A stretch of DNA of 64,000 nucleotides, from NCBI GenBank assembly GCA_041390365.1, contig JAWKQB010000005.1, forward strand, positions 32,457-96,456. Direction: 5' to 3'. The notes below the pieces were generated by a model. It searched no databases and was not told the DNA's origin. It saw only the letters and a program-made list of their open reading frames with translations. Below are positions 1,981 to 53,153 of the stretch, in pieces. A program made the position numbers and the translations under genes. Every line of letters starts with the position of its first letter. Position 1 is the first letter of the stretch. This DNA comes from Syntrophotaleaceae bacterium. GTDB taxonomy: Bacteria; Desulfobacterota; Desulfuromonadia; Desulfuromonadales; Syntrophotaleaceae.

Positions 1981-2020
1981 AGTTGCTAGTCGCTAGTTGC
2001 TGGTTGCTAGTAGTTGCCAG
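1981..2020. repeat. heptamer tandem array, unit AGTTGCT (about 5 units)
   Basis: agttgct agtcgct agttgct ggttgct agtagtt, read directly from the sequence. It fills the spacer between the export-protein start and the prsT stop. Confidence 0.9.
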
Positions 2021-2030
2021 CCCCTGACCC

Positions 2031-4433
2031 CTAGCCGCTAACCGCCGCCTTTAACGCCTTCTCCGCCTCTTCCCGGCCAATGAAGGGTTCGTTGCCAGCC
2101 AGGGATTTTTCCAGATATTTCTTCGCTTCCTCCTTGTTGCCCATATCGAGGGCAATCATCCCCAGGTGGAAGTTGATGACCGGATTTTCGGGGGAAGCGG
2201 CCAGCGCCTGCCGCAACCACTGCTGGGCTTCTGCATGATTGCCGCGCCGGTAGTGGACCCAGCCCAGGGTATCCAGGACGGAAGGATCTTCGGGAGCGAA
2301 ACTGCGGGCCTGCAGCACCAGCTTGAGCGCTTTGTCCAGCTCCTCCTGGCCGGTCGGGCCCTCGGCCAGCAGAAAGGCCAGGTCATTGGCCCCCCGCCAG
2401 AAATCCGGCTGGACCTCGAGAGCCTTTTCGAGCAGGGATATGGCACCGGAACGATCTCCCCGCCGCTGTTTCAGATAGCTGAGCGCCTGGTAGGCTCCGA
2501 CGTTGCGGGGCGTTTTTTCAAGAGCCCGCTGCAGAACGGCTTCGGCCTGTTCCATCTCCCCTTCACGCAGAAAAGATTCGGCGAGATGTTTGTAGGGGGC
2601 CGGCCAATCGGGCTGCAGGGCGATCGCCTTCTCAAATTCCTCCCGAGCCTCAGCGGGGCGCCTCTGCACGAGAAGCAGTTCCCCCTGCAGATTGTGATCA
2701 AAGGGGTTTGCCCCCCGGCGGTCGAGCCGTTTTGCAACGAAATCAACGGCTTCCTGCACCCGGCCCTGGCTGAGACTGAGCTGCATGTAGGCGGCCGCCA
2801 GCAGATCGTTGTCAGGCAGTTTCCGCACTCCTTTTTCCAGTTCGGCCAGGGCTTTGCCCGGCTCCTTCCGGCTCTGGTGCCAGGCACTCAGGCGGAGATA
2901 GCCCACGGGCAGTTCGGGCGCGTTTTCGATCAGCCGCGCATAAATCTCCCCCGCTTCAGCCGAACGCCCTTCGAAAGCGTAAAGATCGGCGGCCTGGGTG
3001 AGCACTTCCAGGTCTTCGGGATGTTTTTTCAGCCAGTCCTGGAGAAGGGTGCGGGCGGCGGCCAGCTGCCCCTGCCTCATCTGCAAGCGACTCAGAGCCA
3101 TCAGCAGCGGCCGGGATTCCGGGAAAAGGTCGAGGCCCTGCTGCAGGATGTCGGCGGCCAGATTGAGTTCCCGGTTCATGAGATGGGCATCCGCGAGACG
3201 GATCCGTGCCTCGGCAAAATCGGGACGCTCTCCGACCACAGTGCGGAAAGAGGTTACAGCCTCGGCCGCATCCCCTTTCATCAGCTGCAGGCTGCCGAGA
3301 ATATAGAGAGCGTCCACATTTTTGGCGCTGCTCTTGAGAACTTTGGAGGCAGTCTGCTCGGCCTGATCGAAATTTCCCTGCTGAAAATGAAGCCCCGCCA
3401 GGGCGGTCATCAGCTCGAGGGCTTCGGGGCTTTCGTCGTCCTTGATCCCCGAAAGCCCTTCCTGCAGCAGGGTTCTGGATTTCTCGACGTCCCCTTCGGA
3501 CTTGAGGATCAGTTCTGCCAACGCCAGCCGCACCTTGCTCAAACGGGGGTGCCCGCGGAGGCCGTCCTCCAGCAGCGTGCGGGCCTTATTGACATCGCCG
3601 CCAGCCAGGTGGAGCTCGGCGACCTGGAGCCAGGCCTGGTCCTTTTCGCCAGCCGAATCCAGGTAGTCCCGCAGCACCTCATCGGCCTCCTTCACCTGCC
3701 CGGCCTGGACATGAAGACGGGCCAGCAGGAGAGCCAGTTCGGGCTTCTCCGGATGATCCTTGCTGGCCTGGCGCAGCAGTTCGGCGGCCTTCTGAAAACT
3801 TCCGCGCAGCTGATAGTACTCGGCCAGCTTAAGCTGGAGCGGCAGGTTGGCGGGGTTGACTTCCAGTCCCTTTTCGATCAGCGCCTGGGCCTCGTCCACC
3901 CTGCCCTGCTCGCGAGAGACAACGGCCAGCAGCAGGAAGAGATCCGGCTGCTTCTCCCCTTCCTCCAGCATTTTTTTCAGGAACGGATCAACCTGCTCCC
4001 AGTTTTTCTGGGCAACCCAGACCGCTGCTTTCAGAAGCTTCGCCTCCGGATGCTGCGGTACGGCCTTCAGGACCGCCTCGGCCTCGTCCATGGCTTTTTC
4101 CGGCAGCTGGGCGCCGAGGTAGATCTTGCCGATCTGCAGGTGAGCGCCGGAGTGTTGAGGATCGAGTTCGACCGTCTTCTGGAACCGGCCAAGAGCTCCC
4201 TTGAAATTCCCCTGCGCCAGCTCAGTCATACCGAGCATGTGGTGGGCGTCGACGTATTTGGGGTCGATCTGCAGCGCGTTCTTGAATTCCAGACCGGCTT
4301 TGACATACTCCCCTTCATCGTACAGGGATTGCCCTTTGGAGAAGAACCGGGCTTTTTTCTCTTCAGGACCGCTGCAGCCGACAATGATCGATCCGATGAT
4401 CATGCACAGGGCAGCCAGAAAAATGAGTTTCAT
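2031..4433 (-). CDS. prsT: PEP-CTERM-system TPR-repeat lipoprotein
   Basis: 800 aa with lipobox (IIVGC). The whole length is TPR repeats (A..Y..G...A...F..AL..P). The size and its position next to the exporter, exosortase and EpsI fit the PrsT family. Confidence 0.7.
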   Translation of the reverse strand: MKLIFLAALCMIIGSIIVGCSGPEEKKARFFSKGQSLYDEGEYVKAGLEFKNALQIDPKYVDAHHMLGMTELAQGNFKGALGRFQKTVELDPQHSGAHLQIGKIYLGAQLPEKAMDEAEAVLKAVPQHPEAKLLKAAVWVAQKNWEQVDPFLKKMLEEGEKQPDLFLLLAVVSREQGRVDEAQALIEKGLEVNPANLPLQLKLAEYYQLRGSFQKAAELLRQASKDHPEKPELALLLARLHVQAGQVKEADEVLRDYLDSAGEKDQAWLQVAELHLAGGDVNKARTLLEDGLRGHPRLSKVRLALAELILKSEGDVEKSRTLLQEGLSGIKDDESPEALELMTALAGLHFQQGNFDQAEQTASKVLKSSAKNVDALYILGSLQLMKGDAAEAVTSFRTVVGERPDFAEARIRLADAHLMNRELNLAADILQQGLDLFPESRPLLMALSRLQMRQGQLAAARTLLQDWLKKHPEDLEVLTQAADLYAFEGRSAEAGEIYARLIENAPELPVGYLRLSAWHQSRKEPGKALAELEKGVRKLPDNDLLAAAYMQLSLSQGRVQEAVDFVAKRLDRRGANPFDHNLQGELLLVQRRPAEAREEFEKAIALQPDWPAPYKHLAESFLREGEMEQAEAVLQRALEKTPRNVGAYQALSYLKQRRGDRSGAISLLEKALEVQPDFWRGANDLAFLLAEGPTGQEELDKALKLVLQARSFAPEDPSVLDTLGWVHYRRGNHAEAQQWLRQALAASPENPVINFHLGMIALDMGNKEEAKKYLEKSLAGNEPFIGREEAEKALKAAVSG

Positions 4434-4523
4434 GTTGTCCGCCTTTCAAAGGGAAGTCGATCATTCCATAAAACCGGAGAGCAGATACTGTGGACTCATT
4501 GTAAAAATCTTGTTAGGCCTGAT

Positions 4524-6182: not shown

Positions 6183-6217
6183 GGCTAGTGGCTGGTGGCT
6201 GGTGGCTGGTGACTGGC
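6183..6217. repeat. heptamer tandem array, unit GGCTGGT (5 units)
   Basis: ggctagt ggctggt ggctggt ggctggt gactggc. Confidence 0.9.
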
Positions 6218-6260
6218 GAAAATTAAAAGCAAACGAATAAAGGACTTCGACCTTTTATCT

Positions 6261-6301
6261 TGAACCTGATACCTGAAACCTGGCTCCTGAAACCTGAATC
6301 T
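6261..6301. repeat. heptamer tandem array, unit TGAAACC (6 units), abutting the exosortase stop codon
   Basis: tgaacc tgatacc tgaaacc tggctcc tgaaacc tgaatct. Confidence 0.9.
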
Positions 6302-9240: not shown

Positions 9241-9355
9241 AGTGAAAGCGGAGTGAGGAGTGAGGAGTGAGGGGTCAGGGTCAGGGTCAGGGTCAGGAAC
9301 CTGATGCCAGTAGCCAGTAGCCAGTAGCCAATAGCCAGTAGCCGGCAACCAGCCT
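9241..9355. repeat. composite short-tandem-repeat block: GAGTGAG x3, GTCAGG x4 (hexamer), CCAGTAG x7
   Basis: gagtgag gagtgag gagtgag gg gtcagg gtcagg gtcagg gtcagg ... ccagtag ccagtag ccagtag ccaatag ccagtag ccggcaa ccagcct. Track ORF 9228..9458 is just its translation (LTLTLTLT...). Confidence 0.95.
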
Positions 9356-15786: not shown

Positions 15787-17112
15787 TTACAAACCAAGAT
15801 ACTCCCGCGTATCCAACTCCTGTTCCACCAGTCTGGCCTTGCCGATGGCCGTTTTTTCAGTCTGGTCGGAAAAAAGGAATCTCATGGCCATGCGATCGCC
15901 GATCAGTTCCTGCATTCTGGCCTGCATCTGCTGACAGAGATCTTCCCGGAAACCGATGCCTTTCACCAGAACGACGTCCATCTCTCCCGGACGTTTCTGA
16001 TGGATCTTGATCGACTCCAGCCCCCCGAACGCCGGGTAATGCTGGCCGAAGACGAGGCTGGTGGCGCTGATCAGTGATCCGTGGGCATCGACGATGAATT
16101 CCTGCTGCCGCCCCACGACTTCATCAATGAGAAGGTAGTTGCGGCCGCAACGGCAGGACTGGTTTGCGGCCGGGATGGCATAATCGCCGGTTCGGTAGCG
16201 AATGAGCGGCATCACCGGATTGTTGAATCCGGTCGCCACAATCTCGAACAGCTCCCTGCCCTGCTCATCGAAGACCCCTGACGGGATCAATTCGGTATAG
16301 CCGTACTGGGGATAGAAATGGAGGGTATCCGAGTACTCGCAGGCTCCTCCCAGAGCCAGACATTCGCTGTGGCCGTACCAGTGGTAGGCGCGGCAACCAA
16401 AAACCACTTCTATTTTCACCCGTTGATAGGGAAAAAGTTTTTCCGACCCGCAAAAAACGGCGGCCGGTTGGAAATCGAGCCTTTTACCGGCTGCTTCCAT
16501 GAGAGTTGCCAGCTGATACATGGTTGATGGATAGCCGTGCAGGAATTTGGGACGGATTTGATTCATTGCCGCCAGATAGTCTTGCAATCTTGAAGAGTTC
16601 AGATCAAACGAGGAAGCGAAATAGATATTGAAAAGCCTGTCGTGATGAACAAATTTTCCTTTCCCCGGTGTGCGCCCCCGAAGATTGAATATTGTATCGC
16701 CCAAGCGATAACCGACCCGGCTCCACTGATCGAAGATAAAGGCCTTTTCCACCTGGCGGGTGATGAAACGGTCCATGTAGAAAACAAAGGGCTGGCCGGT
16801 CGATCCGCCGGTAGTGCAACGCAAAACCTTATAGGAAAGTGGCCGATGAAACTGGGCCAAGTTCTCCCGCAGCATGTCTTTGTCAACCAGGGGAAGTTTG
16901 GCCACCAGAGCAAGGGGATCCGCCAACTCCCTTAGTATCGAGGATAGTTTCTCCCGGTAAAAAGGAACCTCGGCCGCAGCTTGCAGGCTTCGACCCAGAA
17001 GCTGCTTTTGCAAATTCCCCAGCATCTTTTCGTCCCAGTATTCGCTCTTTTTCAGCAAACTGCGCTTTTGGGAGAAGGTCGGGCCCAAAGCTAGATTACG
17101 CCATAGACTCAT
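15787..17112 (-). CDS. CapK / phenylacetate-CoA-ligase-like adenylate-forming enzyme
   Basis: TTGGSTGQPF, YPSTMYQLA, RYRTGDYA. I prefer the ATG at 17112 because it forms an ATGA start/stop overlap with the upstream GT gene; the track start is 17139. Confidence 0.7.
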   Translation of the reverse strand: MSLWRNLALGPTFSQKRSLLKKSEYWDEKMLGNLQKQLLGRSLQAAAEVPFYREKLSSILRELADPLALVAKLPLVDKDMLRENLAQFHRPLSYKVLRCTTGGSTGQPFVFYMDRFITRQVEKAFIFDQWSRVGYRLGDTIFNLRGRTPGKGKFVHHDRLFNIYFASSFDLNSSRLQDYLAAMNQIRPKFLHGYPSTMYQLATLMEAAGKRLDFQPAAVFCGSEKLFPYQRVKIEVVFGCRAYHWYGHSECLALGGACEYSDTLHFYPQYGYTELIPSGVFDEQGRELFEIVATGFNNPVMPLIRYRTGDYAIPAANQSCRCGRNYLLIDEVVGRQQEFIVDAHGSLISATSLVFGQHYPAFGGLESIKIHQKRPGEMDVVLVKGIGFREDLCQQMQARMQELIGDRMAMRFLFSDQTEKTAIGKARLVEQELDTREYLGL

Positions 17113-19372: not shown

Positions 19373-19376
19373 AGTG

Positions 19377-25918: not shown

Positions 25919-25950
25919 CGTGAGGGGTGAGGGGTGAGGAGTGAGGGGTA
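25919..25950. repeat. heptamer tandem array, unit GTGAGGR (4-5 units)
   Basis: tgagggg tgagggg tgaggag tgagggg taac. Confidence 0.9.
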
Positions 25951-25984
25951 ACTTCCTCAACCATCAAAAGCTTGTTAAACCTCG

Positions 25985-26015
25985 CAAGGCGTAATGCGTG
26001 AAGCGTAATGGGTTG
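25985..26015. repeat. heptamer tandem array, unit GCGTAAK (4 units)
   Basis: ggcgtaa tgcgtga agcgtaa tgggttg. Confidence 0.85.
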
Positions 26016-26130
26016 AACCACCGATATGGCAAGAAAAGCGGATCATTACTCGCTTTCCTGCTTTATCCGCGAATGCGAAGCATCAGATTTGATCAGCGTC
26101 CAATTCCACCTTTGACTTCTGTTCTTTACC

Positions 26131-26163
26131 TGTAGCCAGTAGCCTGTCGCCAGCAGCCAGCCT
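26131..26163. repeat. heptamer tandem array, unit AGTAGCC (5 units), ends at the glmS stop
   Basis: tgtagcc agtagcc tgtcgcc agcagcc agccttt. Confidence 0.85.
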
Positions 26164-28016: not shown

Positions 28017-28044
28017 GTGAGGAGTGAGGGGTGAGGAGTAAATC
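28017..28044. repeat. heptamer tandem array, unit GTGAGGR (3-4 units); its last unit overlaps the dehydrogenase stop codon by 2 nt
   Basis: gtgagga gtgaggg gtgagga gtaaatc. Confidence 0.9.
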
Positions 28045-29329: not shown

Positions 29330-29350
29330 CTGTGCTCCGTTGTAATAAAG

Positions 29351-29472
29351 CCGTAAGGCGTGAGGCGTTGTTTAAAACCCGTAAGGCGTGATGCGTGAAA
29401 CTTAATGGGTAAAATCAACAATCTGTTGTTAGCCTTTCACGCATTACGCATTACGCTTTACGATTTACGGCT
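29351..29472. repeat. inverted pair of heptamer arrays (CCGTAAG/GCGTGAK versus CACGCAT/TACGCWT) able to form a long imperfect hairpin
   Basis: cgtaaggcgtgatgcgtgaaa (29380-29400) is complementary to tttcacgcattacgcattacg (29435-29455) with 2 mismatches in 21. The loop is 34 nt. Confidence 0.9.
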
Positions 29473-29678
29473 TTCTTCGCAAGCGGTCCGGCTATCTCGT
29501 GCTGATGCCAGTAGCCGCATAGGACACAGGTTACCCCTCTGATCTTTCCCTCCGAGACGGTTGCCCGGGTGACATACATGCCGATCCTGGCCTGGCATTT
29601 GGGGCACCTGAGGTGTTCCCGCTTGGCGGGATTGTCCCTGCGGCGGTGAGTCTCACAATCGATGATTCCGCGTTCCAT
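29451..29678 (-). CDS. small zinc-ribbon protein (75 aa), function unknown
   Basis: Two CxxC pairs (CPKC ... CVLC) about 25 aa apart, in a basic protein. The last 9 codons lie in the CNTTACG heptamer array. Coding status is uncertain. Confidence 0.4.
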   Translation of the reverse strand: MERGIIDCETHRRRDNPAKREHLRCPKCQARIGMYVTRATVSEGKIRGVTCVLCGYWHQHEIAGPLAKKAVNRKA

Positions 29679-29724
29679 TGGTATCGCTCCAATTGCTCCT
29701 CTTCGGGCGCGCTTGATTTCACCT

Positions 29725-29752
29725 ATTACGCATTACGTATTACGAATTACGG
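29725..29752. repeat. heptamer tandem array, unit ATTACGN (4 units), overlapping the VKOR-DsbA stop region
   Basis: tattacg cattacg tattacg aattacg. Confidence 0.9.
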
Positions 29753-30711: not shown

Positions 30712-30730
30712 GGGTAATCTCCTGAAAGCA

Positions 30731-30789
30731 GGGGCTAGGGGCTGGGGGGTAAGGGTTATTCAAGACCTCAGTAGCCGATAGCCAGATTC
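30731..30789. repeat. two short heptamer arrays (GGGGCTR x4, then CAGTAGC-type x3)
   Basis: ggggcta ggggctg gggggta agggtta ... cagtagc cgatagc cagattc. Confidence 0.8.
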
Positions 30790-30881
30790 GGGAGCCACTC
30801 TAGTTAGCACTTTTTCGTTATTTATTTGTTTTCTGCTAGAGGTCGGTTAGATCGGAAGGGGGGCATCCTAAACCTTTTTCT

Positions 30882-30965: not shown

Positions 30966-30990
30966 GCTCAAAAGTGTTTTTTCCCTTTTC

Positions 30991-32005: not shown

Positions 32006-32040
32006 TATCTATCTCTTTTAAAATTTAAATCCACAAATGC

Positions 32041-32136
32041 GTTAGGTGTGAGGAGTGAGGCGTAAAAGCCTTTTACCAATCACGCATTACGCTTTACGAA
32101 TTACGGACTTCGAATTTACCAGCCACCAGCCCCTGC
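32041..32136. repeat. heptamer arrays: GTGAGGN x3-4, then CACGCAT/TACGNNT x5 running into CCACCAG-type units
   Basis: gttaggt gtgagga gtgaggc gtaaaag ... cacgcat tacgctt tacgaat tacggac ttcgaat ttaccag ccaccag. Confidence 0.9.
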
Positions 32137-32943: not shown

Positions 32944-32960
32944 GGCGATTTCCTTTAATC

Positions 32961-33037
32961 CGTAAGTCGTAAGACATAAAACGTAAGGGGTAGAGATTAA
33001 AACCAATTACGCTTTACGCATCACGCTTTACGATGTT
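32961..33037. repeat. 11 in-phase heptamers switching from CGTAAGN to the complementary CGCTTTA/CGCATCA orientation
   Basis: cgtaagt cgtaaga cataaaa cgtaagg ggtagag attaaaa ccaatta cgcttta cgcatca cgcttta cgatgtt. Confidence 0.9.
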
Positions 33038-34545: not shown

Positions 34546-34626
34546 ACTTTCCTCCTGGGTATTTGAAAAAGTAATCAACAATTAGAAGCCGTAATACATT
34601 GTGCGTAAGGCACAATAGGTTTTAAC

Positions 34627-34654
34627 CCCTCACTCCTCACCCCTCACTCCTCAC
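34627..34654. repeat. heptamer tandem array, unit YCCTCAC (reverse orientation of GTGAGGR), 4 units
   Basis: ccctcac tcctcac ccctcac tcctcac. Confidence 0.9.
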
Positions 34655-35344: not shown

Positions 35345-35361
35345 TATGAAAATCCGTATTT

Positions 35362-35508
35362 CAAGTCCCGAGTCTTTAATACGGTCCCGAGTCCCGAGTC
35401 CCGAGTCCCGAGTCCCGAGTCCTGAGTCCTGAGTCCTGAGTACTGAGTCCTGAAGCCTGGACCTTGGACCCGGGACCATGGACCGCCTTTTGACCTTGGA
35501 CCGCCCCT
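35362..35508. repeat. 21 in-phase heptamers (147 bp) filling the ExbD-TonB spacer; the unit drifts GAGTCCC -> GAGTCCT -> GGACCNN
   Basis: ggtcccg agtcccg x4 agtcctg x3 agtactg agtcctg aagcctg gaccttg gacccgg gaccatg gaccgcc ttttgac cttggac. Confidence 0.95.
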
Positions 35509-35914
35509 ATTTAACCAACTTCTGCGTCACCAGACCCAACTGAGTGATGTCGAGTTTCATCAGCACATCGAGTATGCCGATGATCTGGCTGTAAAACACC
35601 TGTTCGTCGCCGCGGACCACCACCGGCAGATTGGGGTCGGCGGCCTTGTACTGCCGCAGCATGGTTTCGAGTTCGGCCATGGTCACCGGGTAGCTGTCCA
35701 GGTAGATCTGTCCGTCGGCGGCCACGGTGATCGCCTTGGTGCTCGGCTTGACCTCGCTGACCACATTGCTCGCCTTGGGCAGGTTGATCTTGATCCCCTG
35801 CACGGCGGAGGTCACGGCGATAATGAAGACCACGAGCAGGGTCCAGGCCAGGTCGAGCAAAGGGGTGACGTTGATATCGTCCATCACCTTCTGGTCGTAA
35901 AGATCGCGTCTCAT
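35507..35914 (-). CDS. exbD: ExbD/TolR-family biopolymer transport protein
   Basis: 135 aa. INVTPLLDLAWTLLVVFII single TM with the conserved Asp, and a periplasmic ExbD fold pattern. Stop/start is 1 nt from the exbB-like gene. Confidence 0.8.
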   Translation of the reverse strand: MRRDLYDQKVMDDINVTPLLDLAWTLLVVFIIAVTSAVQGIKINLPKASNVVSEVKPSTKAITVAADGQIYLDSYPVTMAELETMLRQYKAADPNLPVVVRGDEQVFYSQIIGILDVLMKLDITQLGLVTQKLVK

Positions 35915-35915
35915 G

Positions 35916-37688: not shown

Positions 37689-37713
37689 AGTGAAACCTCC
37701 GTTTTAAATTCGG

Positions 37714-37748
37714 TAACTAGTAGCTAGTAAATAGTGGCTAGTCGTTAT
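37714..37748. repeat. heptamer tandem array, unit TRRCTAG (5 units)
   Basis: taactag tagctag taaatag tggctag tcgttat. Confidence 0.85.
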
Positions 37749-37761
37749 TTTCTCACTGCTT

Positions 37762-46700: not shown

Positions 46701-47850
46701 TACGGCTATTTTCCCCTGTACTGACCAGTTTGGAGGCCATCAGTTCTATCTGACTGGCTTTTTCAGGCGACGTGGCGGCCATTGCGTCCCAATTCTGGTA
46801 TACTTCATTGCCGTACATTCCGATTAATCCAAGATTGGCCTCCAGAGCACCTCCTTCATATACTATTTCTACTAATCCTTGGTTGTTTATCTGCTCACGT
46901 ACGTTCTCCCAGTTTTGTTCATTGATTGTTATCTCGTTGCCTTCTGCATCTATAAAAACGATGTCAACATCCTCTCCTCTTTTCAGATTTTCCAGATAAT
47001 TCCAGTTTTCATTGGATATATTTTTTCCTTCGCTTTTTGTTTCTTTCAATACAACCCGTCCTAACTGATTAACTACCTCGCCGGCATTCTCCTGAACCAC
47101 ATTTACCCTATAGCCCAGCTCGATGCGCGTCTGAGACTCAGTCTCCTGCTCCAGCAAAACCTTCGTACCTGCAGCCAATCCGATCTGTCCCGCGGTTGCA
47201 CTGATGGTGTCCTCGTTGACGACCTTTTGGCCCAGCAGAAAAATCCGTCCACCAACCTCTGTGGCGGTGATAGTTCCCTGATTGCGGATGCCGTAGCCGG
47301 AGTCGGTTGCCGCGTAGTCGGCAAGACCCATGTAGTCTTCCGCCTGAAAGGTCAGGTTGTTGTTGATAAAGTTGGTATCGCTGATATTGAGGGTGGAAGC
47401 GGTCAGGGAGCCGACGTTGACCTGGGAGCCTTCGCCGAAGAGGATGCCGTTCTGGTTGATCAGGTAGATATGGCCGTCTGCTTTGAGCGTGCCGTAGATC
47501 TGACTGGGGTTTTGGTCGTGGATGCGATTGAGGGCGGCCCAGCTGCTGTTGCCCTGCTGCTCGAAATAGGTGGTGGCACCCTTGCCGATGTTGAAGGATT
47601 CCCAGTCGATGATGACTTTGGAGGTTTTCTGGTGGATGGTCAGAGTATCGCCTGAATAGTTGGCTTCGGCCACAGTGTCCGGGTCCACGCCTGAGGGAAC
47701 CGCCACATTGAACCCCGTGGGCAGGGTTCCTTCCGGCACATTGGGCAGGTCGGCGGCGTTGTTGAAAGCCGAATACCGGCCGGCATAACTCGCCACGGGT
47801 GCGAAGGTCAACAGCCACACCAGCCATGCAGCACATATTTTTCGCAACAT
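37762..47850 (-). CDS. giant two-partner-secretion exoprotein (TpsA, filamentous-haemagglutinin-like beta-helix adhesin), 3362 aa
   Basis: Signal peptide. N-terminal TPS domain (TLTIHQKTSKVIIDWESFNIGKGATTYFEQ...AALNRIHDQNPSQIYGTLKADGHIYLINQNGILFGEGSQVNVGSLTAST). The remaining approx. 3000 aa are Gly/Asp/Ser/Thr-rich beta-helix-type repeats. Confidence 0.9.
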   Translation of the reverse strand: MLRKICAAWLVWLLTFAPVASYAGRYSAFNNAADLPNVPEGTLPTGFNVAVPSGVDPDTVAEANYSGDTLTIHQKTSKVIIDWESFNIGKGATTYFEQQGNSSWAALNRIHDQNPSQIYGTLKADGHIYLINQNGILFGEGSQVNVGSLTASTLNISDTNFINNNLTFQAEDYMGLADYAATDSGYGIRNQGTITATEVGGRIFLLGQKVVNEDTISATAGQIGLAAGTKVLLEQETESQTRIELGYRVNVVQENAGEVVNQLGRVVLKETKSEGKNISNENWNYLENLKRGEDVDIVFIDAEGNEITINEQNWENVREQINNQGLVEIVYEGGALEANLGLIGMYGNEVYQNWDAMAATSPEKASQIELMASKLVSTGENSRTSTPITPSTETYVVDKNIQVDANIKIHGISYDSEDTVARVEHRGIIDAPSGNVTIDAGERVYLAEDSIIDVSGLWVTKGAESLVLETTLNSLELRDYFAQKGGILQGQTIRFLATEGSAIGDVSGVLNTQEQTAAELATTGGTIIINSGLNQEAGNTADIIVRDGALLDFSGGGIEYDSGTVEVTGLVSGSSLPDIASASQWGRYSATKNVEKYIPDHVAGADAGILKLIAPRIVLDGVLKGQATIGAYQIYDNKEEAKGLLSLLRPKGGFLQLGELIGDNNSPGDRDAILESVRVVDSTTSLSDFSESDELNENQINIISARKIEEAGLGSLTVSTNGEFTLAENAEIGLQAGGSLSVYARRIIQEGRVYVPSGDLAYSLLENVTSTTEADPRYGEYESRFYLGEKAVIDVSGERNDNRLVSGSDSIVQGILDGGTVTISDLASPVCALVLAQGSRIDVSGGYQWSEDGDIEGGDAGSLTIQGDALFLDGELTGLALIGQTGSELNLHASDLTVTAALVGDSGMTADSELPPGYEGLVLSTTQLRDSGFTRINLKSARDLIVKSGVHLQPSVARLQPGSEFNTETSAEQSRYEALGIFPSSTAWQVPNAADGQPLPGYLGASTITLASGKPIDAKPDPSVPEEETRIARTIVESGATLSVGPTGQIGISGPGVEINGVLEALAGEVNVTASSTFATLGYDPLILGEEARILAGGWNEPGTAPASGLVRSQSPHDGGSVTITSSDTLLIAEGAVVDVSAAPDTRTWIRDKYHRLNQVPIGGDPGEITLSFANLELGGQLLAKAYRASGQGGSLTLINTDLTTNWSLDSEDFDYWLAGGFDALTLRGYSGLSFNGEISARLDRSLVLDTTRITAGEDADVWLESPWVRLINSVGVFEDADAVAIGEGQLVLAGEWIDLVGDLQLSGFDNVYLGADRELRVSDFDYQLRLRDDSDSLTWSGKLAHSGDLIMTGRIFPEVPDDLAGEFAAFAGSGLADQDSFSSALTADFKFQIGGKITTLPGSIDSTRALTSAGGSITLEAGGGIEHRGTIEAPYGTVALIATGEGDDENSGRVYLAPGSLLRTTGSGATAYGTLADGTWFNDTKDTSASERDHEEVTEALGHGVTISGEQVLMAEGAQIDVSGGGAIFAYQFQPGVDGSTNPLSGALIVVPDPDQQLPGEAVYLQGVEGVADGVYSVVSEDYALVASAYTEIRQDYTRQSGQKAELAAESAALAVENEALAAGAEDEISAAQYTALAEQYRQEAADYGRQAEQYALMAEQYAELADEYSQFENALVLADLGTIYQAGGAQYTEEGYRIVAGYQTWQGTDIDAAALKSYSVRKLRDLLAEGDFEVAAFAQGDAGSISLLGETTVVDGTLNASPLEGLYTGGSMTLSGAEVVVTASSQGTSAIAWDEFGFADGLSAEHLDTLLIDGGALSGFAAVELGQEDKTTKITLEEGSELQVAGTSLTLTCGKNGDLADGENGIYLMKDSTIEAGEVTFNAPDVEVVLGEGSKVHVSDALNLATNDLELRGDGLEGHFQIDNSTVNLLGKRIVFVEGDDTGGEQGLVITREFWSLFENIANIGLKSESDIAFNGSFNLEVNNQLYLDEARLVGNGGDVRLAAQTIILGNSGQKSNEGSAEDIGNLTLVANVVQMANGDVRTDGFRTINIEAAEKVSVTGQGSFTLDGDLTVSTPLVKVTGERNSLDTYEAADYLIDGGIGTVAILGGDDGIPEAGNAGGRFEIAAGTIRVDSIVDNTAGTTTLNGSDSVSVEENGKILNRGNAYFSGGRVQVIAEDGEIDLAAGSLIDVSGGAQGDAGSIKLVDGTGGVNLAGELRGRRGSENGHGGSFDMDIAAVADFSSLNTQLHEGGFDERIAVRARSGDLNIAAADIVRAQEVYLAADAGGVSLAGTLDASGDSGGTVELHSGQDLTLASGSLIDVSGDAGEGGSVVLNSRDGWVNMASGALIDASGSGQGGSIHFRAAREDGVAGSTGINLQGTIIGADKVIAEGVETYSVDGPLNQIIFNSYLADAEAWIANAEDLFDNLALESTDIEALQLRAGIEATSDGNLTVGALNLSDSNVLGNLVVRAAGNMTVTGTVRDGNGVMTTSPVQDSWGISLVAGADPAAADFTATVRDTGTLTIGNNLQVYSESGPVTLAAGDSIHIGTAAVNGGTMISSAIPFNIGSYSGAVEVRTEGNLTINGGVIQTATGDIDLRIGGNLSLNQSGNTLGTVRTLGEAQAGATDYWDYDHGGDVFVDVDGSIIGGYNRNGWDKVTSKLVMINGRRVRKYSWQPSYDGSSTTQGLATLGGGNLTVRTGADFTTQAGTFGSGNFTLSAGGDLSGRFLNRQGTASIASLGNIGATDDQQSFEILDTVLQVTAQGDLHASVVDPFIAHPDHEGMTSSSTTWTLGMTEETSMFLQSIGGDVVLYGEHPIYPSDDAKDWWRSVLPATVVIQAGRDIVLKQLFGMLPSSEGNLQLVAGRDIRAESVGQTISGIIMNDDDPADVYATDGSIDKSQFFSAEASNRNSDLHKDDGQAIEITAGRNIENIAFRLPKMAHITAGGDIRYLRYVGQNFNEDDVSLISASNSIVVESALKKNTATESLFGIEQGGPGALIVQAGYSLDLGTSRGIVASGSAKNSALGSEGADLLVLVGYDTKVSTTDATENFSLEDAAVFFAALKVYGQELVEAQADGRTADANAIVEKARSELIEMVFGPAPGITERQAGRGYLKMVESLISTTAGASNIYIAAAGDIDVGRSSINDSGTNKGTGIFTTAGGDISILNIGDLNVFESRVMTYGGSDIFVWADQGDINAGRGSRTAISQTDKTIYVDEYGEYRVSYSPPAVGSGIRALTYDPDGVAGIKEKPDPGDIILVAPEGIIDAGEAGIAGGRILLAATEVRNAQNISFSLGSVGVPTSSGTSGLGALAGVSSLTEVSSLVEQAASFGPRDGLTPAKVVDDFLGKWLDVEVTGFVL

Positions 47851-47867: not shown

Positions 47868-47923
47868 AATCAGTGATCAGTCATGATTGATCAGTGATCG
47901 GTGTTCAATGACTGAAACCTGAC
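47868..47923. repeat. heptamer tandem array, unit GATCAGT (8 units)
   Basis: aatcagt gatcagt catgatt gatcagt gatcggt gttcaat gactgaa acctgac. Confidence 0.9.
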
Positions 47924-47967
47924 CAGAAAATAGATTTGTTATTTAGCGTGGACCAGCAACAAGCAAC

Positions 47968-49575
47968 CTAAAAGTAATATTTCAGCCGGAAATGGCCCCG
48001 GATGTCGCCGCTGTCGGCGCGGGCGGTGGCCGAGAGGGCCATGGCCAGGTCGAGCTCGTAATCGAACATCTTCCACAGTTCGCCGCGCAGACCCAGTCCG
48101 GTGCCCTGCAGTTCGAACTCGTCCGTCTGATCGGGCAGGGGATCCTTGACCCACAAACGGGCATAGTCGTAGAACAGATAGGGGCGCAGTTCCATCCAGT
48201 TCTCCCAGCCGGCCAGTTTGCCGACGTCGGGCAGCAGCCATTCGATGGAGGCGCGGACCCCGTTGTCCCCGAGGGAATCGCTCTCCTTGTAGCCGCGAAC
48301 GCTTTCCATGCCGCCGGCGGAGAACTGCTCGCTGGACACAAGCGGTTCGCTGGCCACCTGACCCTTGACCGCCAGGGCCAGGTCCATGTCCCAGGGCAGC
48401 TGCTGCTCCCGCTCCAGGCCGACATTCAGGTAGAAGTAGTCGCCCCGGGCCTGGTAGCGCTTGCCGGAGAACTCCTCCTCGCTGCCGACCAGACCGCGAA
48501 AATGCCAGTTGAGGGCGGCCTGCAGGCGGGTGTTCCCCGTCTTGCCGAGCAGGGTGCCGTTGTAGCCAATGGAGAAGGGGAGGTAGGAGATGGGGGTTTC
48601 GGTGTCCTCCTCGTCCTCGCCGACAAAACCGAGGGTTTCCTCGAAATCCTTGTAGTCCACGCCAAAGCTGATGGAGTGGTAATACTTCTTGTAAGGGTCC
48701 AGGGGCACCAGATAGCGGGCGCCGAGAATGAAACCCTTGCCGATGACGTTGAAGCCCTCGCCGAAGGCGGTCTCGCTGTCGGTCCACAGGGCGTAGCCGG
48801 CCAGGTAATGCTTTTTCTGCCAGGGCGTCGGCAGCACGTAGGAGCCGCCGAGGACCTGCACCTCACTCGGCTCCAGGGGCGCTGTCTGGTACTGGAAGGA
48901 GGCCGAATGCTTGCGCTGCCAGAGATTGTCGTAGCGGATCAAGCCATTGAGCCGCAGCTCGCTGGTATCGTGAGTCGAGCGGTTGTTTATTTCGACACTT
49001 GCATGCAGAGGCATCCGGTCCTCGACGGTCAGCACCACGTCGTCCACCCCCATGTCCCGGGCCGGCTCCAGCTTGAGCCGCACGGTCAGGTCGGGGTTGG
49101 CGTTGAGGGCGTTGAGCTGCTCTTCCACATCGGGGATGTAGATGATCTTTCCCGGCTGCAGCGCGGGCAGCTCCTCCATAATGCCGGCCTTGGTGAAGTA
49201 GCGGTTTTCGTTGACCAGCACCTGGCCGATGCGTGATTCGATCACCTTGAGACGGATTTCGCCCCCCTCGACCATCTGCTCCGGAATGTTGACCATCACC
49301 CGCAGGAAGCCGTTTTCCTGGTAGAACTTCTCCAGCTTGGTCCGGGCGTCCTCGACGACATCGGCGGTTTTTTCAGGACCGGTAAATTCCATGAGCAGTT
49401 CGTCGAGCAGTTCGCCGGGATACAGGGTGTTGCCCTCGACGACGAACTGGCGGATCTCGAAGGTCGGCCCTGCGTCGGTCTCCGCAGATTGTTCCTCAGC
49501 CCAGACCGTGGATGCCAGAAACCCTGCCGCAAGGATGAGACTCAAGATGCTTACAGCCAAACGCAGCGTCCTCAA
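47968..49575 (-). CDS. TpsB transporter (ShlB/FhaC/HecB family, POTRA + 16-strand barrel)
   Basis: POTRA-like FEIRQFVVEGNTLYP...LEKFYQENGFLRV. Barrel ending ...GHFRLKYYF. I prefer the TTG at 49575 (GGAGGA SD 6 nt upstream, giving MRTLRLAVSILSLILAAGFLASTVWA). The track ATG at 49656 adds 27 aa that are a translation of heptamer repeats. Confidence 0.85.
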   Translation of the reverse strand: MRTLRLAVSILSLILAAGFLASTVWAEEQSAETDAGPTFEIRQFVVEGNTLYPGELLDELLMEFTGPEKTADVVEDARTKLEKFYQENGFLRVMVNIPEQMVEGGEIRLKVIESRIGQVLVNENRYFTKAGIMEELPALQPGKIIYIPDVEEQLNALNANPDLTVRLKLEPARDMGVDDVVLTVEDRMPLHASVEINNRSTHDTSELRLNGLIRYDNLWQRKHSASFQYQTAPLEPSEVQVLGGSYVLPTPWQKKHYLAGYALWTDSETAFGEGFNVIGKGFILGARYLVPLDPYKKYYHSISFGVDYKDFEETLGFVGEDEEDTETPISYLPFSIGYNGTLLGKTGNTRLQAALNWHFRGLVGSEEEFSGKRYQARGDYFYLNVGLEREQQLPWDMDLALAVKGQVASEPLVSSEQFSAGGMESVRGYKESDSLGDNGVRASIEWLLPDVGKLAGWENWMELRPYLFYDYARLWVKDPLPDQTDEFELQGTGLGLRGELWKMFDYELDLAMALSATARADSGDIRGHFRLKYYF

Positions 49576-49594
49576 CGCTTTTCCTCCATATAAA

Positions 49595-49705
49595 ATTCGT
49601 AATTCGTGATGCGTAAGGCGTAAGGGGTAAAATTCGGTCAAAAACCTTGGCTTCATGGCTACAAGCCTTTCTCACCAATTACCTGTTACGCCTTACGATT
49701 CACGG
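49595..49705. repeat. inverted pair of heptamer arrays (ATTCGTA/AGGCGTA versus GTTACGC/CTTACGA)
   Basis: cgtaaggcgtaa (49612-49623) is perfectly complementary to ttacgccttacg (49686-49697). The arrays flank a spacer of about 40 nt. Confidence 0.9.
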
Positions 49706-51705: not shown

Positions 51706-51741
51706 AGGCACTCCGTCAATTCGCGTCATTTATCCGGGCGG

Positions 51742-51793
51742 CAAAAAAACAAAACCCCAGCCGATAGGGTGCAATAAACCCTCTCGGCTGGGG
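51742..51793 (-). terminator. strong Rho-independent terminator, 37 nt upstream of the FKBP start codon
   Basis: Minus-strand RNA CCCCAGCCGAGAGGG-UUUAUUGCA-CCCUAUCGGCUGGGG (14 bp, 1 mismatch) followed by UUUUGUUUUUUUG. Confidence 0.8.
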
Positions 51794-51920
51794 CTGTTCG
51801 ATACCTGATAAGGTCGAACCGGTAACCCGGCCTCTGGTGTCCGATACTTTTCGCGGCCGAAAAGGCCGTATTTCCGGTCGCCGGCTGCCTCAAAAGATTC
51901 CCGGACGACACGGGAACTTT
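51794..51920 (-). promoter_or_regulatory. structured leader (candidate riboswitch, attenuator or small RNA) ending in the terminator above
   Basis: Successive hairpins in the minus-strand RNA: UUCCCG-ugucguc-CGGGAA; CCG-GAA-AUAC[CGGCC-uuuuc-GGCCG]CGAAAAGUAUCGG; GUUCGA-ccuuaucaggua-UCGAAC. No upstream minus-strand gene exists, because the neighbouring gene is divergent. Confidence 0.45.
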
Positions 51921-52109
51921 TTATAGAAGAGAAATGTTAGGAGAATATTTTTTGAATCGCCTTTCTGACAATTTTTTGACCGGGCCTTTTCCGCTTCATT
52001 TTTTACACCCCCTCCTTGACCTTCATAGGCGGAGGTGGGGATAATTACAGCTCCAGGAGGCTGGTTACCATCTTTTTCAATTCCATTCTCAACAACAAAG
52101 GTCTTTCAT

Positions 52110-53153
52110 ATGCATTTGTTTTTTCGTCGTTTTTTCCCCCTGATCACCCTTCCGCTCGCCATTGCCTGCTGTGTGCCGCAACCGGAAGTTGCCTCTCCCG
52201 ATCCGGTTCGATTGCAACAGCCCGATGCCAGCACCACCAACCCGGCCAGCGCCGACTTCGACCGCTGGGTGGAGGAGCTGGCCATCGAGGCGAGGAGCCG
52301 GGGGATCAGTGAAACCACCCTTGCGGACGCCCTGACCGGCCTGCAGCCTATCCCGCTGGCAGTAAAAGCGGCAGGGAAACAGGCCGAAGATGTTTTTTCC
52401 GCCCGCCGCTATCTGGAACGGATGGTCTCGGAGAACCGGATTCGCCAGGGCATTCTGCAGATACGGGAAAAAGAGGCTCTTTTTGAAAGGGTTCACGACA
52501 CCTACGGAGTGCAGCCGGCCTACCTCGCAGCCTTGTGGGCCATCGAAAGCGATTTCGGCAAGGGCAAGGCCCGCTTTCCCCTGGTCGGGGCACTGGCGAC
52601 CCAGGCATGGCAGGGCCAGCGCCGCGAATTTTTTCGCCGCGAGCTGCTGGCGGCCCTGGAAATCCTCGACCGGGAGGGGATGAAAAGCGCCGACCTGCGC
52701 GGTTCGTGGGCGGGGGCGAGCGGGCAGTTCCAGTTCATCCCCACCAGTTACCTCCACTATGCGGTCGATTTCGACGGCGACGGTCACCGTGATATCTGGA
52801 CCGATCCCGCGGACGCCCTTGCCTCGGCGGCGAATTTTCTCAAGGAGGCGCGCTGGCGGCCGGATCAGGAATGGGGCAGGGAAATTCAGCTGCCCGCCAG
52901 GTTCGATCCCGCCCTGGCCGGACTGAAGGTGCGCAAGCCTCTGGCGGAATGGCGGAAACAGGGGCTCGCTGAAGCCGCCGGCCCCGCGGATCGGATGGCC
53001 TCACTCCTGCTGCCCGACGGCCCGGAAGGACCGGCCTTTCTGGTCTTCGACAATTTTCGCGTGCTGATGCGCTGGAACCGCTCCAGCTCCTTTGCCCTGG
53101 CTGTCGGAACCCTGGCGGACAGGATTGAAATGGGAGTGAGGAGTGAGGGGTAA
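52110..53153 (+). CDS. lytic murein transglycosylase (MltB/SLT_2 family) lipoprotein
   Basis: Trimmed to the ATG at 52110 (MHLFFRRFFPLITLPLAIACC lipobox). YGVQPAYLAALWAIESDFG, GSWAGASGQFQFIPTSY, AVDFDGDGHRDIW. Confidence 0.85.
   Translation: MHLFFRRFFPLITLPLAIACCVPQPEVASPDPVRLQQPDASTTNPASADFDRWVEELAIEARSRGISETTLADALTGLQPIPLAVKAAGKQAEDVFSARRYLERMVSENRIRQGILQIREKEALFERVHDTYGVQPAYLAALWAIESDFGKGKARFPLVGALATQAWQGQRREFFRRELLAALEILDREGMKSADLRGSWAGASGQFQFIPTSYLHYAVDFDGDGHRDIWTDPADALASAANFLKEARWRPDQEWGREIQLPARFDPALAGLKVRKPLAEWRKQGLAEAAGPADRMASLLLPDGPEGPAFLVFDNFRVLMRWNRSSSFALAVGTLADRIEMGVRSEG
53132..53152. repeat. heptamer array GAGTGAG-type (3 units) spanning the mltB-like stop and the hydrolase GTG start
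   Basis: gggagtg aggagtg aggggta. Confidence 0.8.

Follow-up and report, generated by a model that had tools for sequence, protein, structure and literature searches.

The locus analyzed here raises the question of why the spacers within the operons of a bacterial cell-envelope gene cluster are filled with tandem heptanucleotide arrays, and whether these arrays represent a new kind of genetic element. The sequence under study, referred to as the window in the following, is a stretch of 64,000 nt from a Syntrophotaleaceae bacterium (GenBank assembly GCA_041390365.1, contig JAWKQB010000005.1, positions 32,457 to 96,456). In a preliminary description of this DNA, arrays with a 7-nt period had been listed at 16 gene junctions. 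All of them could be found with the given units and positions by reading of the sequence and with Tandem Repeats Finder (TRF), and the count of 16 agrees. The arrays are a dense new case of a known class and not a new kind of element. Three regularities were observed: the arms of paired elements co-vary, the G-rich arm almost always comes first, and this first arm gives stop codons in all frames, which are used by genes.

Period, location and architecture of the heptanucleotide arrays

In the 4,260 nt of intergenic DNA, TRF reported 21 rows of period 7 with 2.3 to 9.6 copies each, six rows of period 14 and three rows of other periods, compared to one period-7 row in the 59,740 nt of coding DNA. 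The concatenated intergenic DNA gave 19 period-7 rows, whereas a mean of 0.10 (maximum 1) was found in 100 dinucleotide-preserving shuffles of the same sequence. The intergenic identity at lags of 7, 14 and 21 nt was 0.337, 0.312 and 0.293 against a baseline of approximately 0.25, which corresponds to about 13 standard deviations for lag 7. The coding DNA showed a 3-nt period only, with no lag-7 peak. The period and the non-coding placement are thus as originally described, and the enrichment analysis proposed at that time (TRF and lag-7 identity, intergenic versus coding DNA) yields an intergenic excess within the window. A frequency no higher than in shuffled DNA, which had been named as grounds for discarding the arrays, was not observed.

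Fifteen of the 16 junctions lie in minus-strand operons, and the remaining one is a plus-strand gene overlap (53133-53148). In the sense of the transcript, an array-bearing spacer is composed of the stop codon, the arrays, a short A/U-rich stretch, the Shine-Dalgarno (SD) sequence and the start codon, and the overlap of arrays with genes is limited to the last few codons. Both divergent promoter spacers of the window are free of arrays. The density is about 4 arrays per 10 kb across the first 53 kb (about 20 in 53 kb), and the region from 53 to 64 kb is devoid of heptad arrays apart from GTCCGTG repeats at about 62030-62075. It had also been pointed out that five junctions with ATGA start/stop overlaps carry no array. 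This is true but trivial, since these junctions have no spacer and belong to a low-GC glycosyltransferase island.

Within the window, GTRA-core runs were found at 15 sites, and CCAGTAG and GGCTGGT units at three sites each. If GTRA or TYAC cores spaced by 7 nt are counted as a run from three cores onwards, 15 such runs are present, for which about 0.02 would be expected by chance according to our own estimate. Perfect runs, e.g., (GAGTCCC)5, (GGGTCA)4 and (GGAGTGA)3, grade into mutated units. The arrays had rightly been set apart from CRISPR, as their 7-nt units stand head to tail without spacers, whereas CRISPR consist of 24-48-nt repeats with unique spacers.

The arrays are real, and an assembly artefact is very unlikely. 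The Logan short-read contig L001 (SRR28338172) is 100% identical to window positions 35393-45914 (10,522 nt) and stops within the GAGTCCY array, of which it covers 10 nt; this array is the longest of the window. The same contig gave the only exact protein match. Metagenome contigs of relatives from five unrelated samples carry homologous heptad elements at the same junctions. The comparative series was collected via relatives of ExbB and GlmS, with protein identities of about 93% (L187, GlmS), 81% (L188, GlmS), 78% (L186), 72% (L063/L184), 71% (L002), 61% (L185), 59% (L003) and 57% (L005).

Two forms can be distinguished, namely unpaired direct arrays and paired elements, in which a G-rich arm with GTRA cores (R-arm) is followed by a complementary C-rich arm with TYAC cores (Y-arm). 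Half of the arrays have neither a partner arm nor a structure; for the unpaired arrays at 1981, 6183-6298, 9250-9343, 28017 and 37713, the fold z values range from +1.3 to −1.7 and are not significant. At about one third of the junctions an arm is combined with a reverse-complement arm, for which a long, imperfect stem-loop of 25-45 bp is predicted. R-arm/Y-arm pairs are located at 29345-29475, 32040-32125, 32950-33036, 35360-35506 and 49575-49702. For four predicted stem-loops (29330-29470, 32945-33040, 35360-35506 and 49565-49702), none of 200 shuffles folded as well. The complementary families had been listed in the preliminary description, although the stem-loops formed by arm pairs were not drawn out there. 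The abutment of different families reported there is seen and is partly explained by these pairs, as neighboring “families” frequently represent both arms of a single element.

The two arms were found to vary together. Units of the type CGTRA in the 5′ arm are accompanied by TYACG units in the 3′ arm in six elements (four in the window and two in L188), and AGTRA is accompanied by TYACT in four elements (L186, L063 twice and L002), with essentially no mixing. Every heptad has therefore changed on both arms together, and this pattern requires either selection for pairing or copying between the arms, for example by template switching.

The CGTAAG and GTGAGGR units had been treated as separate families. 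This separation does not hold, as judged by their sequences: both are variants of one dispersed CGTRAGG-type element family with the conserved non-repeat termini AAAnCCGTRA ... TYACGGnTTT, which recur at non-orthologous sites. Five arms of the window share 45 nt, which cover the outer end outside the repeats (...ATTACGGCTTT) as well as AGCCTTTYAC on the inner side (repeat family D3). At five sites the R-arm starts with AAAAYCCGTRAGG, whether GTGAGG or CGTAAGG units come next (repeat families D2 and D5). In addition, the apex GGCTTGTAGCCATGAAG at about 49650 of the window recurs as GGCTTATAGCCATGAG in the L188 element downstream of glmS, which is a different junction. Because non-repeat termini and the apex are common to different junctions, the CGTAA/TTACG hairpins form a dispersed family. 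The best arm-to-arm identity among the copies is 84%, and no near-identical pair was found.

Heptad elements occur at the same junctions as in the window in L188, L186, L063/L184 and L002. The intergenic lag-7 identity reaches 0.48 in L063 and is weaker in L002 (0.30, z 3.5). In the 57-61% relatives L185, L003 and L005, the spacers are 8-40 nt in length, with no lag-7 signal and no GTRA/TYAC runs. The junctions that measure 8-40 nt in these distant relatives measure 46-410 nt in the window. Since the 71-81% relatives carry the elements and the 57-61% relatives do not, the elements therefore colonized pre-existing tight junctions in one clade. An absence of arrays from the relatives in general, as suggested by strict TRF or X-drop detection, was ruled out by reading of the spacers and by lag-7 identity, which revealed degenerate heptads in L063 and L002.

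At individual junctions the arrays differ between relatives. Downstream of the porin gene, the window carries a CGTAA/TTACG hairpin and L002 an AGTAA/TTACT hairpin, while the 59-61% relatives carry none. Between the two-partner secretion (TPS) exoprotein gene and exbB, an unpaired CTAG array in the window compares with an AGTRATG/TTACT hairpin in L186. Downstream of glmS, (GGCTGGN)n follows directly after the stop codon in both the window and L188, and the 3′ arms are nearly identical (CCCATTACGCTTCACGCATTACGCCTTGCGAGG in the window, CCCATTACGCCTCACGTATTACGCCTTACGGG in L188). Judged from these comparisons, the turnover of arrays is real but not instantaneous. In L187, four copies of another inverted-repeat element of about 90 nt were identified (approximately 480-560, 2005-2095, 3985-4075 and 4115-4205). 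It reads GAATTAACAGGGATGnACAGGATnnACAGGAT ... ATCCTGnnnATCCCTGTTAAAT (also TTAACAGGGATG...ATCCCTGTTAA), and it replaces the heptad arrays of the glmS-flanking junctions of the window and L188.

A search with the pattern (GTGAGGR)3 identified 57 IMG/VR contigs and at least 120 loci in GTDB representatives. None of the GTDB loci listed overlaps the window. The GTDB matches listed, on which the following counts for other genomes are based, belong to a dozen phyla and include Planctomycetota, Cyanobacteria, Beta- and Gammaproteobacteria, Gemmatimonadota, Bacteroidota, Clostridia, Campylobacterota, Acidobacteriota and Actinomycetota, as well as six metagenome-assembled genomes (MAGs) of Desulfuromonadales/Geobacter. 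Many of these 8-kb loci contain 4-14 further period-7 arrays with unrelated units, often as inverted pairs. According to crude open reading frame (ORF) calls, 234 of 331 arrays among the listed matches are intergenic, with 105 located in co-directional, 58 in convergent and 21 in divergent spacers. The non-seed units are highly diverse between the genomes listed, so the families are genome-specific, as in Xanthomonas, Nostoc and Beggiatoaceae. Eight of the IMG/VR contigs (L013, L018, L045, L050, L052, L056, L057 and L058) are AT-rich and classified as “viral”, two of them being labelled GVMAG. In each of the eight, (GTGAGGA)3-4, about 130 nt of A/T-rich DNA and (TCCTCAC)3-4 follow each other, with the purine arm always first. 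In L018 the unit belongs to a larger inverted duplication.

The GTRA core contains TGA or TAA, which occurs every 7 nt, and three units thus give a stop codon in all three frames. Stop-bearing units account for 17 of 20 in the window, where three genes end within an arm. The 75-aa zinc-ribbon ORF (stop at 29451) extends through two units (...AVNRKA*) and is terminated in the third; the thioredoxin-like gene ends at 29740; and the gene ending at 49700 has its TGA in the first unit of the arm. For the inverted pairs in other genomes (matches listed), the stop was confined to the first arm (top strand) in 59 cases and to the second arm in 3. When the GTGAGGR family, which had served as search seed, was left out, the ratio was 8 to 1.

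The order of the arms is similarly asymmetric. In all 10 paired GTRA/TYAC elements of this clade the R-arm comes first. In other clades, R-arm-first elements outnumber the reverse order by 39 to 5 among the GTDB loci listed and by 31 to 2 in IMG/VR, together 70 to 7. The GC skew of the window spacers is +0.19 behind stop codons and falls to −0.20 ahead of start codons (p = 9e-6), and in the matches listed from other phyla it falls from +0.60 to −0.39 (Spearman −0.57). A reading of this gradient as a transcript-sense rule was rejected, since the pattern is unchanged by reverse complementation. Candidate causes of the polarity are safe insertion, the avoidance of SD- or start-like G-rich sequence near true starts, and a terminus defined by a mobilizing enzyme. 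The polarity rule, if it held in an unbiased census, would constrain any mechanism.

Relation to described intergenic repeats

Heptanucleotide arrays have been reported since 1990 from cyanobacteria, Xanthomonas, Beggiatoaceae, Bacteroidetes and Geobacter metallireducens. With the window, a case of very high density is added from an uncultured member of the Desulfuromonadia, together with a series of relatives with and without the elements. No matches at the gathering score were found with Rfam 15 in the window, L188, L187 and L063. The host had been described as deltaproteobacterial, which fits the protein matches: the best named homologs of GlmS (about 70% identity) and ExbB (40-57%) belong to Desulfuromonadales, Geobacteraceae and “Deltaproteobacteria” MAGs. 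Because these best named matches fall in Desulfuromonadales/Geobacter, the host is, by its proteins, a divergent, uncultured lineage of the Desulfuromonadia type.

The statement that such repeats are unexpected in this group was too strong, as the intergenic repeats of G. metallireducens were catalogued in 2009; it is the density that is unusual. In the intergenic DNA of that species, (GGGACCG)4 is found 49 times, along with 53 opposite-strand pairs whose tandem units measure 7-9 nt (Aklujkar et al., 2009; PMC2700814). These comprise 24 pairs of (GTTGCTYN)4, 21 of (TCTCCGTSY)3 and 8 of (MTYCTGA)5, referred to below as classes 1 to 3. They are located also between the co-transcribed genes proB-proA and moaA-mosC, and G. 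sulfurreducens lacks them (PMC2700814). Sites for the integration host factor (IHF) or HU, or for a regulator, were proposed by these authors. Transposase genes of the IS110 family (ISGme8) and the IS481 family (ISGme9) lie at fixed distances from class-1 pairs (PMC2700814, Table S4), which hints that the repeats may be target sites of insertion sequences (IS) or related to IS ends.

The window shows the same organization, with two opposite-strand sites of tandem units in one intergenic region and shared cores. Both systems occur in the same order-level group, consist of 3-5 units of 7-9 nt in opposite-strand pairs at variable distance, are intergenic and are lineage-specific. Common cores are GGACC (35458, TGGACCN), TCAGG (6263, TCAGGNN, which corresponds to MTYCTGA in reverse complement), GTTGCT (1981 and 47950) and TCCGTG (about 62040). 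In a class-3 pair of G. metallireducens, the purine-rich arm comes first, as in the window. In contrast, the density in G. metallireducens is far lower (about 150 sites in 4 Mb compared to about 20 in 53 kb of the window), and no period-7 arrays were found in 21.8 kb of its glmS region. The dominant family of the window, CGTRAGG/CCTYACG, is not among the families described for G. metallireducens, in which periods of 8-9 nt are common, whereas 7 nt dominates in the window.

The STRRs, short tandemly repeated repetitive elements of heterocystous cyanobacteria, have units such as CCCCAGT, TTGGTCA and CAACAGT. They had been named as the closest analogue, and they are indeed of the right kind: 7-bp repeats that can form hairpins were found between the co-transcribed genes hupS and hupL, and transcript stabilization, translational coupling and termination were proposed as their roles (PMC2670836). 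Like STRRs, the window elements have 7-bp units in few families, are intergenic between co-transcribed genes and can form hairpins. Unlike STRRs, they occur in another phylum with other units, and sequence is shared only in the form of GTGAGG-type arrays, which are also present in Nostoc MAGs. As STRRs are defined taxonomically by heterocystous cyanobacteria, the window elements are referred to as STRR-like rather than as strict STRRs.

An excess of heptamer simple sequence repeats (SSRs) across many bacteria has been noted since 2007, and slippage related to the polymerase footprint has been put forward as an explanation (both as cited in PMC4692102). In Xanthomonas, about 185 GGGAATC arrays were described, some of them as inverted pairs, which vary between close species, and in Nostoc the heptamer SSRs have the unit GGGGAYT (Rehm et al., 2015; PMC4692102). 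In Beggiatoaceae, 169 sets of TAACTGA repeats were found near start codons without SD sequence (MacGregor, 2015; PMC4679880). The same unit is present in cyanobacteria and Bacteroidetes, mixed heptamers occur in Microcystis and Bacteroidetes, and repeat-free relatives have shorter spacers (PMC4679880). The deletion of heptamer repeats upstream of recO in Nostoc changed the responsiveness to LexA/NtcA about 2-fold in reporter assays (bioRxiv 10.1101/2022.06.06.494920). These SSRs and the window arrays have favored heptamers, inverted pairs, lengths and sequences that differ at a given junction among close relatives and shorter repeat-free spacers in common. The described SSRs comprise hundreds of intergenic arrays per genome with 2-26 units and mixed heptamers, often abutting SD-less starts. 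Each of those studies followed one unit family, whereas at least six families coexist and abut in the window. The potential for G-quadruplex formation in the window is limited to the GTGAGGG subset. Desulfobacterota were not reported in the surveys of PMC4692102 and PMC4679880.

With the repetitive extragenic palindromic (REP) sequences, bacterial interspersed mosaic elements (BIMEs) and REP doublets (REPINs), the window elements share the extragenic position, intercistronic or 3′ of genes, the imperfect palindromes, the inverted doublets and the dispersal with conserved termini. REPs are single palindromes of 20-40 nt without a 7-nt periodicity or a variable unit number. They carry GTAG at the outer 5′ end, while the window elements carry CCGTRA, a GT-purine-purine motif being common to both. 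The window arms were found to be heptad arrays of variable length with the outer motif CCGTRA. The earlier statement that these are not classical REPs is thus correct, as there is no fixed palindrome, while the shared termini at non-orthologous sites may reflect a REP- or MITE-like dispersal (MITE, miniature inverted-repeat transposable element).

Possible origin and roles of the elements

From the architecture shown above, we infer how the elements are generated, how they spread and what they do. In the reading that we favor, and to which we give about an even chance, they are STRR-like heptad intergenic elements that are driven by slippage, matched between their arms, spread among untranslated operon junctions and tolerated because they terminate translation themselves. 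Arrays would grow, shrink and be homogenized by 7-nt slipped-strand mispairing, as suggested by perfect runs that grade into decayed units. The second arm may be made, or kept matched, by intrastrand template switching, selection for pairing or both, and whole elements would be copied to new junctions by a recombination or transposition route. They would survive only where they are untranslated. The arm met first, on either strand, would present TGA, TAA or TAG every 7 nt and thus a stop in all frames within 21 nt, so that an element landing on or growing over a gene end would still terminate translation. In a polycistronic mRNA, the paired form would constitute an intercistronic stem-loop, probably modulating segment stability, leaky termination or translational coupling, while the unpaired C-rich and G-poor arrays may form an unstructured leader before the next start codon. 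Individual genes are probably affected to a modest extent.

Several results weigh against this explanation. Slippage alone leaves the recurring unit families with shared non-repeat termini unexplained; a dispersal step is needed, and nothing encoded in the window supplies it. The sole independent contig of the same strain, L001, is identical and stops at an array, and thus provides no copy-number variant. The near-identical 3′ arm at the glmS junction of the 81% relative could reflect purifying selection instead of near-neutral turnover. The summed minimum free energy (MFE) was −572 kcal/mol for the sense and −567 kcal/mol for the antisense RNA; as there is no bias, a palindrome acting at the DNA level fits equally well as a role at the RNA level. 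The G-rich-first polarity, too, stays the same when the strands are exchanged; it therefore characterizes the palindrome and is not evidence on the transcribed strand. Selection of the units for stop codons was rejected as a general law, as the fraction elsewhere was 63% compared to 55% expected, although the asymmetry between the arms survives. Finally, class 3 of G. metallireducens has its stop in the second, C-rich arm and is an exception.

Besides slippage with arm matching, a MITE/REPIN-like origin, binding of a protein and leaky termination remain as alternatives. The first of these, non-autonomous mobile elements served by a transposase in trans and modified by slippage after insertion, is possible but doubtful. 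It would account for the 45 nt shared by five arms, for the common start of five R-arms and for the apex GGCTTRTAGCCATGAR at 49650 and at a different junction in L188. The other inverted-repeat element at the same junctions in L187 suggests that these spacers were repeatedly colonized, a fixed end-polarity is expected from a transposase-defined terminus, and the IS110 and IS481 copies of G. metallireducens stand at fixed distances from class-1 pairs (PMC2700814). However, no consistent target-site duplication was found around the hairpins, arm length and unit number vary widely, and many arrays are unpaired. A transposase or RAYT-like gene was not found among the 40 window proteins scanned with Pfam (excluding the TPS exoprotein at 37762-47850 and the sirtuin-adjacent ORF at 62939-63844), and with a best arm-to-arm identity of 84% and no near-identical copies there is no sign of recent transposition.

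An explanation by multivalent binding sites is doubtful as well, and slightly more so. Each heptad would be contacted by one protomer of a DNA- or RNA-binding protein, and paired arms by a dimer or oligomer. Candidate binders are IHF/HU (Aklujkar et al., 2009; PMC2700814) and, as discussed for TAACTGA, a cold-shock or S1-domain protein with a footprint of about 7 nt (MacGregor, 2015; PMC4679880). The same unit families are found repeatedly, at many junctions as well as in relatives, the near-invariant GTRA/TYAC core with free positions elsewhere resembles a recognition core, and the 2-fold regulatory effect at Nostoc recO points in the same direction. On the other hand, at least six unrelated families are present in 50 kb (GTRA, CTGG/CCAG, GGACC/GGGAC, TCAGG, GTTGC and CTAGC), not all of which would be read by one protein. 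Unit decay is gradual, and at a given junction the arrays undergo turnover among close relatives. They are also located inside operons and not at promoters, with both divergent spacers of the window lacking them, and no candidate protein is encoded in the window.

The distribution over many phyla allows a wider reading, which we consider unlikely: an element class with a built-in grammar (G-rich arm first on both strands, stops facing ribosomes, complementary arms) that is spread by a dedicated, horizontally transferable factor. Such a factor could be a protein that binds nucleic acids specifically at heptads, a variant of a polymerase or of the repair machinery, or a Y1- or IS110-type recombinase. 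If this were true, the lineage of the window would be a hyper-colonized host in which the factor could be found by phylogenetic profiling.

A function of the hairpins in leaky, bidirectional intrinsic termination or attenuation, by which the stoichiometry in the envelope operons would be set, is improbable. The stems are predicted to be long and stable, with AAAG on their 5′ side and a short U-run on the 3′ side (GGGUUUUAAAC, ACGAAUUUUAUAU and ACGAUUUUAAAA). Arrays of other phyla are over-represented in convergent compared to divergent spacers (58 versus 21, by the crude ORF calls among the matches listed), and termination was suggested for one STRR hairpin (PMC2670836). Yet an intrinsic terminator has a short GC-rich stem, a loop of 3-8 nt and a U-tract of at least 5 in 8 nt, whereas the array stems are AU-rich with large apical loops and U-runs of only 3-4 nt. 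None of the array sites passed a terminator scan, there was no excess over shuffles in the 25-38 kb region, and half of the arrays have no partner arm or structure. Moreover, the downstream genes belong to the same modules (ExbB-ExbD-TonB-porin), so efficient termination would be harmful. A scan of the window for canonical promoters found nothing.

Contingency loci, in which copy number would switch genes for surface structures (exopolysaccharide (EPS), TonB, TPS exoprotein), are a very improbable explanation. Like the window arrays, such loci have tandem, slippage-prone units near surface genes; the window arrays cluster in cell-envelope operons, include perfect runs such as (GAGTCCC)5 and (GGGTCA)4, and, when the array is read through, tonB is in frame with an ATG upstream of it. 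Contingency loci, however, are perfect tracts of 1-7-nt units in reading frames or between promoter elements, while most arrays here are imperfect and lie between a stop codon and a ribosome binding site (RBS), where a change of 7 nt alters neither frame nor promoter spacing. In addition, TonB homology starts after the array, and arrays are also found at housekeeping junctions (glmS) and, among the matches listed, across non-pathogenic phyla. The probability that the arrays are an assembly or scaffolding artefact is negligible: the break of L001 leaves copy number uncertain at the longest array, but the same contig does not differ from the window over 10.5 kb, in which the 37713 array is contained, homologous elements were seen in contigs from five unrelated metagenomes, and the arrays respect gene boundaries exactly.

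Individual elements and gene setting

The elements of the window are compiled in Table 1. In practical terms, such arrays break short-read assemblies and mislead ORF callers, here at three gene starts and in one TonB extension of 45 aa. The longest TonB ORF (34661-35479, minus strand) begins at an ATG within heptad arrays, which adds 45 repeat-encoded residues. Since homology to the relatives begins at residue 46 of this ORF, the GAGTCCY/GGACC arrays are non-coding. The naive ORF starts at 25960, 33006 and 49656, which run into arrays, are probably wrong calls.

Table 1. Heptad arrays and paired elements of the window; z, z value of the predicted fold.
Position	Element	Strand	Location and remarks
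1981..2011	(AGTTGCT)4.4 direct array		Fills the spacer from the TPR gene stop to the Poly_export gene RBS (TRF, reading); (TAGCAAC)n in transcript; GTTGCT core as in G. metallireducens class 1
6183..6216	(GGCTGGT)4.9		Directly upstream of the start of the glycosyltransferase-4 gene; not followed by an obvious SD
6263..6298	(AACCTGA)5.1		TTCAGGN in transcript; just after the exosortase gene stop; core as in G. metallireducens class 3 (MTYCTGA); whole spacer 6183-6298 reads (TTCAGGN)n + (CCAGCCA)n in transcript
9250..9343	(GGAGTGA)3.3, (GGGTCA)4.3 (6-nt period) and (GCCAGTA)5.4, abutting		(CTGGCTA)5, (CCTGAC)4, (CCTCACT)3 in transcript; z −1.7, not significant
25920..25949	(GTGAGGG)4.3		CCCCTCA in transcript; located directly upstream of the ATG of the DUF218 gene
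25982..26017	CGTAAT-type arm, 3 units		Near-identical to the 3′ arm at the L188 glmS-downstream junction
26129..26160	(GTAGCCA)4.1		CTGGCTN in transcript; begins 6 nt past the glmS stop; GGCTGGN array at the orthologous L188 position
28017..28039	(GTGAGGA)3.3		Most of the 46-nt UDP-glucose dehydrogenase-glmS spacer; (CTCCTCA)3 in transcript
29345..29475	Heptad hairpin	minus	CGTAAnn arm, apex, nnTTACG arm, extra short arm; CGTAAnn arm starts within the last codons of the 75-aa zinc-ribbon ORF and gives its stop; MFE −37 kcal/mol, z −3.0
29719..29751	(ATTACGA)3.9 arm		Overlaps the last codons and stop of the thioredoxin-like gene
30712..30790	(AGGGGCT)2.7 + (AGTAGCC)2, opposed arms	minus	Upstream of the thioredoxin-like gene start
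32040..32125	Composite element	minus	CGTAAnn arm (4 units), tight apex GGTAAAAGGCTTTTACG, CCTCACn/TTACG arm; arms partly complementary; z not significant
32950..33036	Heptad hairpin	minus	From the porin stop to the RBS of the next gene; MFE −30 kcal/mol, z −4.9
34625..34654	(CCTCACT)3.9		GTGAGGR in transcript; just after the TonB stop; a small separate hairpin follows
35360..35506	About 21 heptads	minus	Non-coding; GAGTCCY array of the preliminary description; GGTCCnn units after the ExbD stop pair with (GGGACTC/GGACTCA)n; MFE −68.6 kcal/mol, z −4.1; GGACC core as in G. metallireducens Gmet_H4
37713..37742	(GTAGCTA)4.3		From the TPS exoprotein stop to the ExbB RBS; (CTAGNNA)4 in transcript, unpaired
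47869..47911	(ATCAGTG)6.1		Upstream of the TPS exoprotein start; z −2.2
~47945-47960	Two GTTGCTT units		After the ShlB-type gene stop
49575..49702	Heptad hairpin	minus	First unit holds the TGA stop of the upstream gene; apex GGCTTGTAGCCATGAAG as in the L188 glmS-downstream element; MFE −45 kcal/mol, z −4.3
53133..53148	(GGAGTGA)2.3	plus	SLT transglycosylase/hydrolase gene overlap; units double as SD, GTG start and stop context

Between 0.4 and 51.7 kb, nearly all genes are encoded on the minus strand and arranged as cell-envelope operons according to a Pfam scan. They include genes for a polysaccharide-export protein, a TPR protein, a glycosyltransferase-4 and an exosortase (EpsH), as well as UDP-GlcNAc 2-epimerase, heparinase-like and WecG genes. 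These are accompanied by glmS, UDP-glucose dehydrogenase, a thioredoxin-like gene, a SurA-like peptidyl-prolyl isomerase, a coiled-coil protein and a Porin_5 porin, and by TonB, ExbD and a fusion of ExbB with DUF2341 and Laminin_G. The array-bearing junctions involve the genes for EPS/exosortase, ExbBD-TonB-porin and two-partner secretion. The two-partner secretion pair, on the minus strand, consists of a 3,362-aa TPS-domain/DUF3739 exoprotein (37762-47850) and a ShlB/FhaC-type transporter (47968-49569). It is located directly upstream of the ExbB(DUF2341-LamG)-ExbD-TonB-porin genes, an order that is kept in all relatives examined.

The low-GC island at about 15800-25300 has a GC content of 36-52%, compared to about 60% elsewhere in the window. 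It contains three family 4 glycosyltransferases, a flippase, a Wzy-like polymerase and a GHL10/Laminin_G protein, with genes overlapping by ATGA or similar 4 nt, and is probably a horizontally acquired polysaccharide module. The 75-aa zinc-ribbon ORF (CPKC...CVLC; 29451-29678, minus strand) is unannotated and is missed by naive ORF calling at 100 aa. By eye, it resembles a 93-aa gene at the same place in L002 (KCPKC...VSEG...CVLCGYW). In the coding region of the Poly_export protein, four copies of a 111-nt repeat with 62-78% identity were found at 1046-1471, in the N-terminal half, which probably encode a repeated coiled-coil segment.

Upstream of rpsD, at about 62030-62075, GTCCGTG occurs three times at 10-nt spacing, and its TCCGTG core is that of G. 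metallireducens class 2 (TCTCCGTSY). A further inverted repeat, with a period of 10 nt, is located at 30870-30965 and consists of GCGGATAAAG versus CTTTATCCGC units; its arms are 31 nt in length and 81% complementary, and it is organized like the heptad elements at another period. The same 325-nt spacer upstream of the thioredoxin-like gene also holds a (CTCTGTGAG)2.8 array at 30990-31014.

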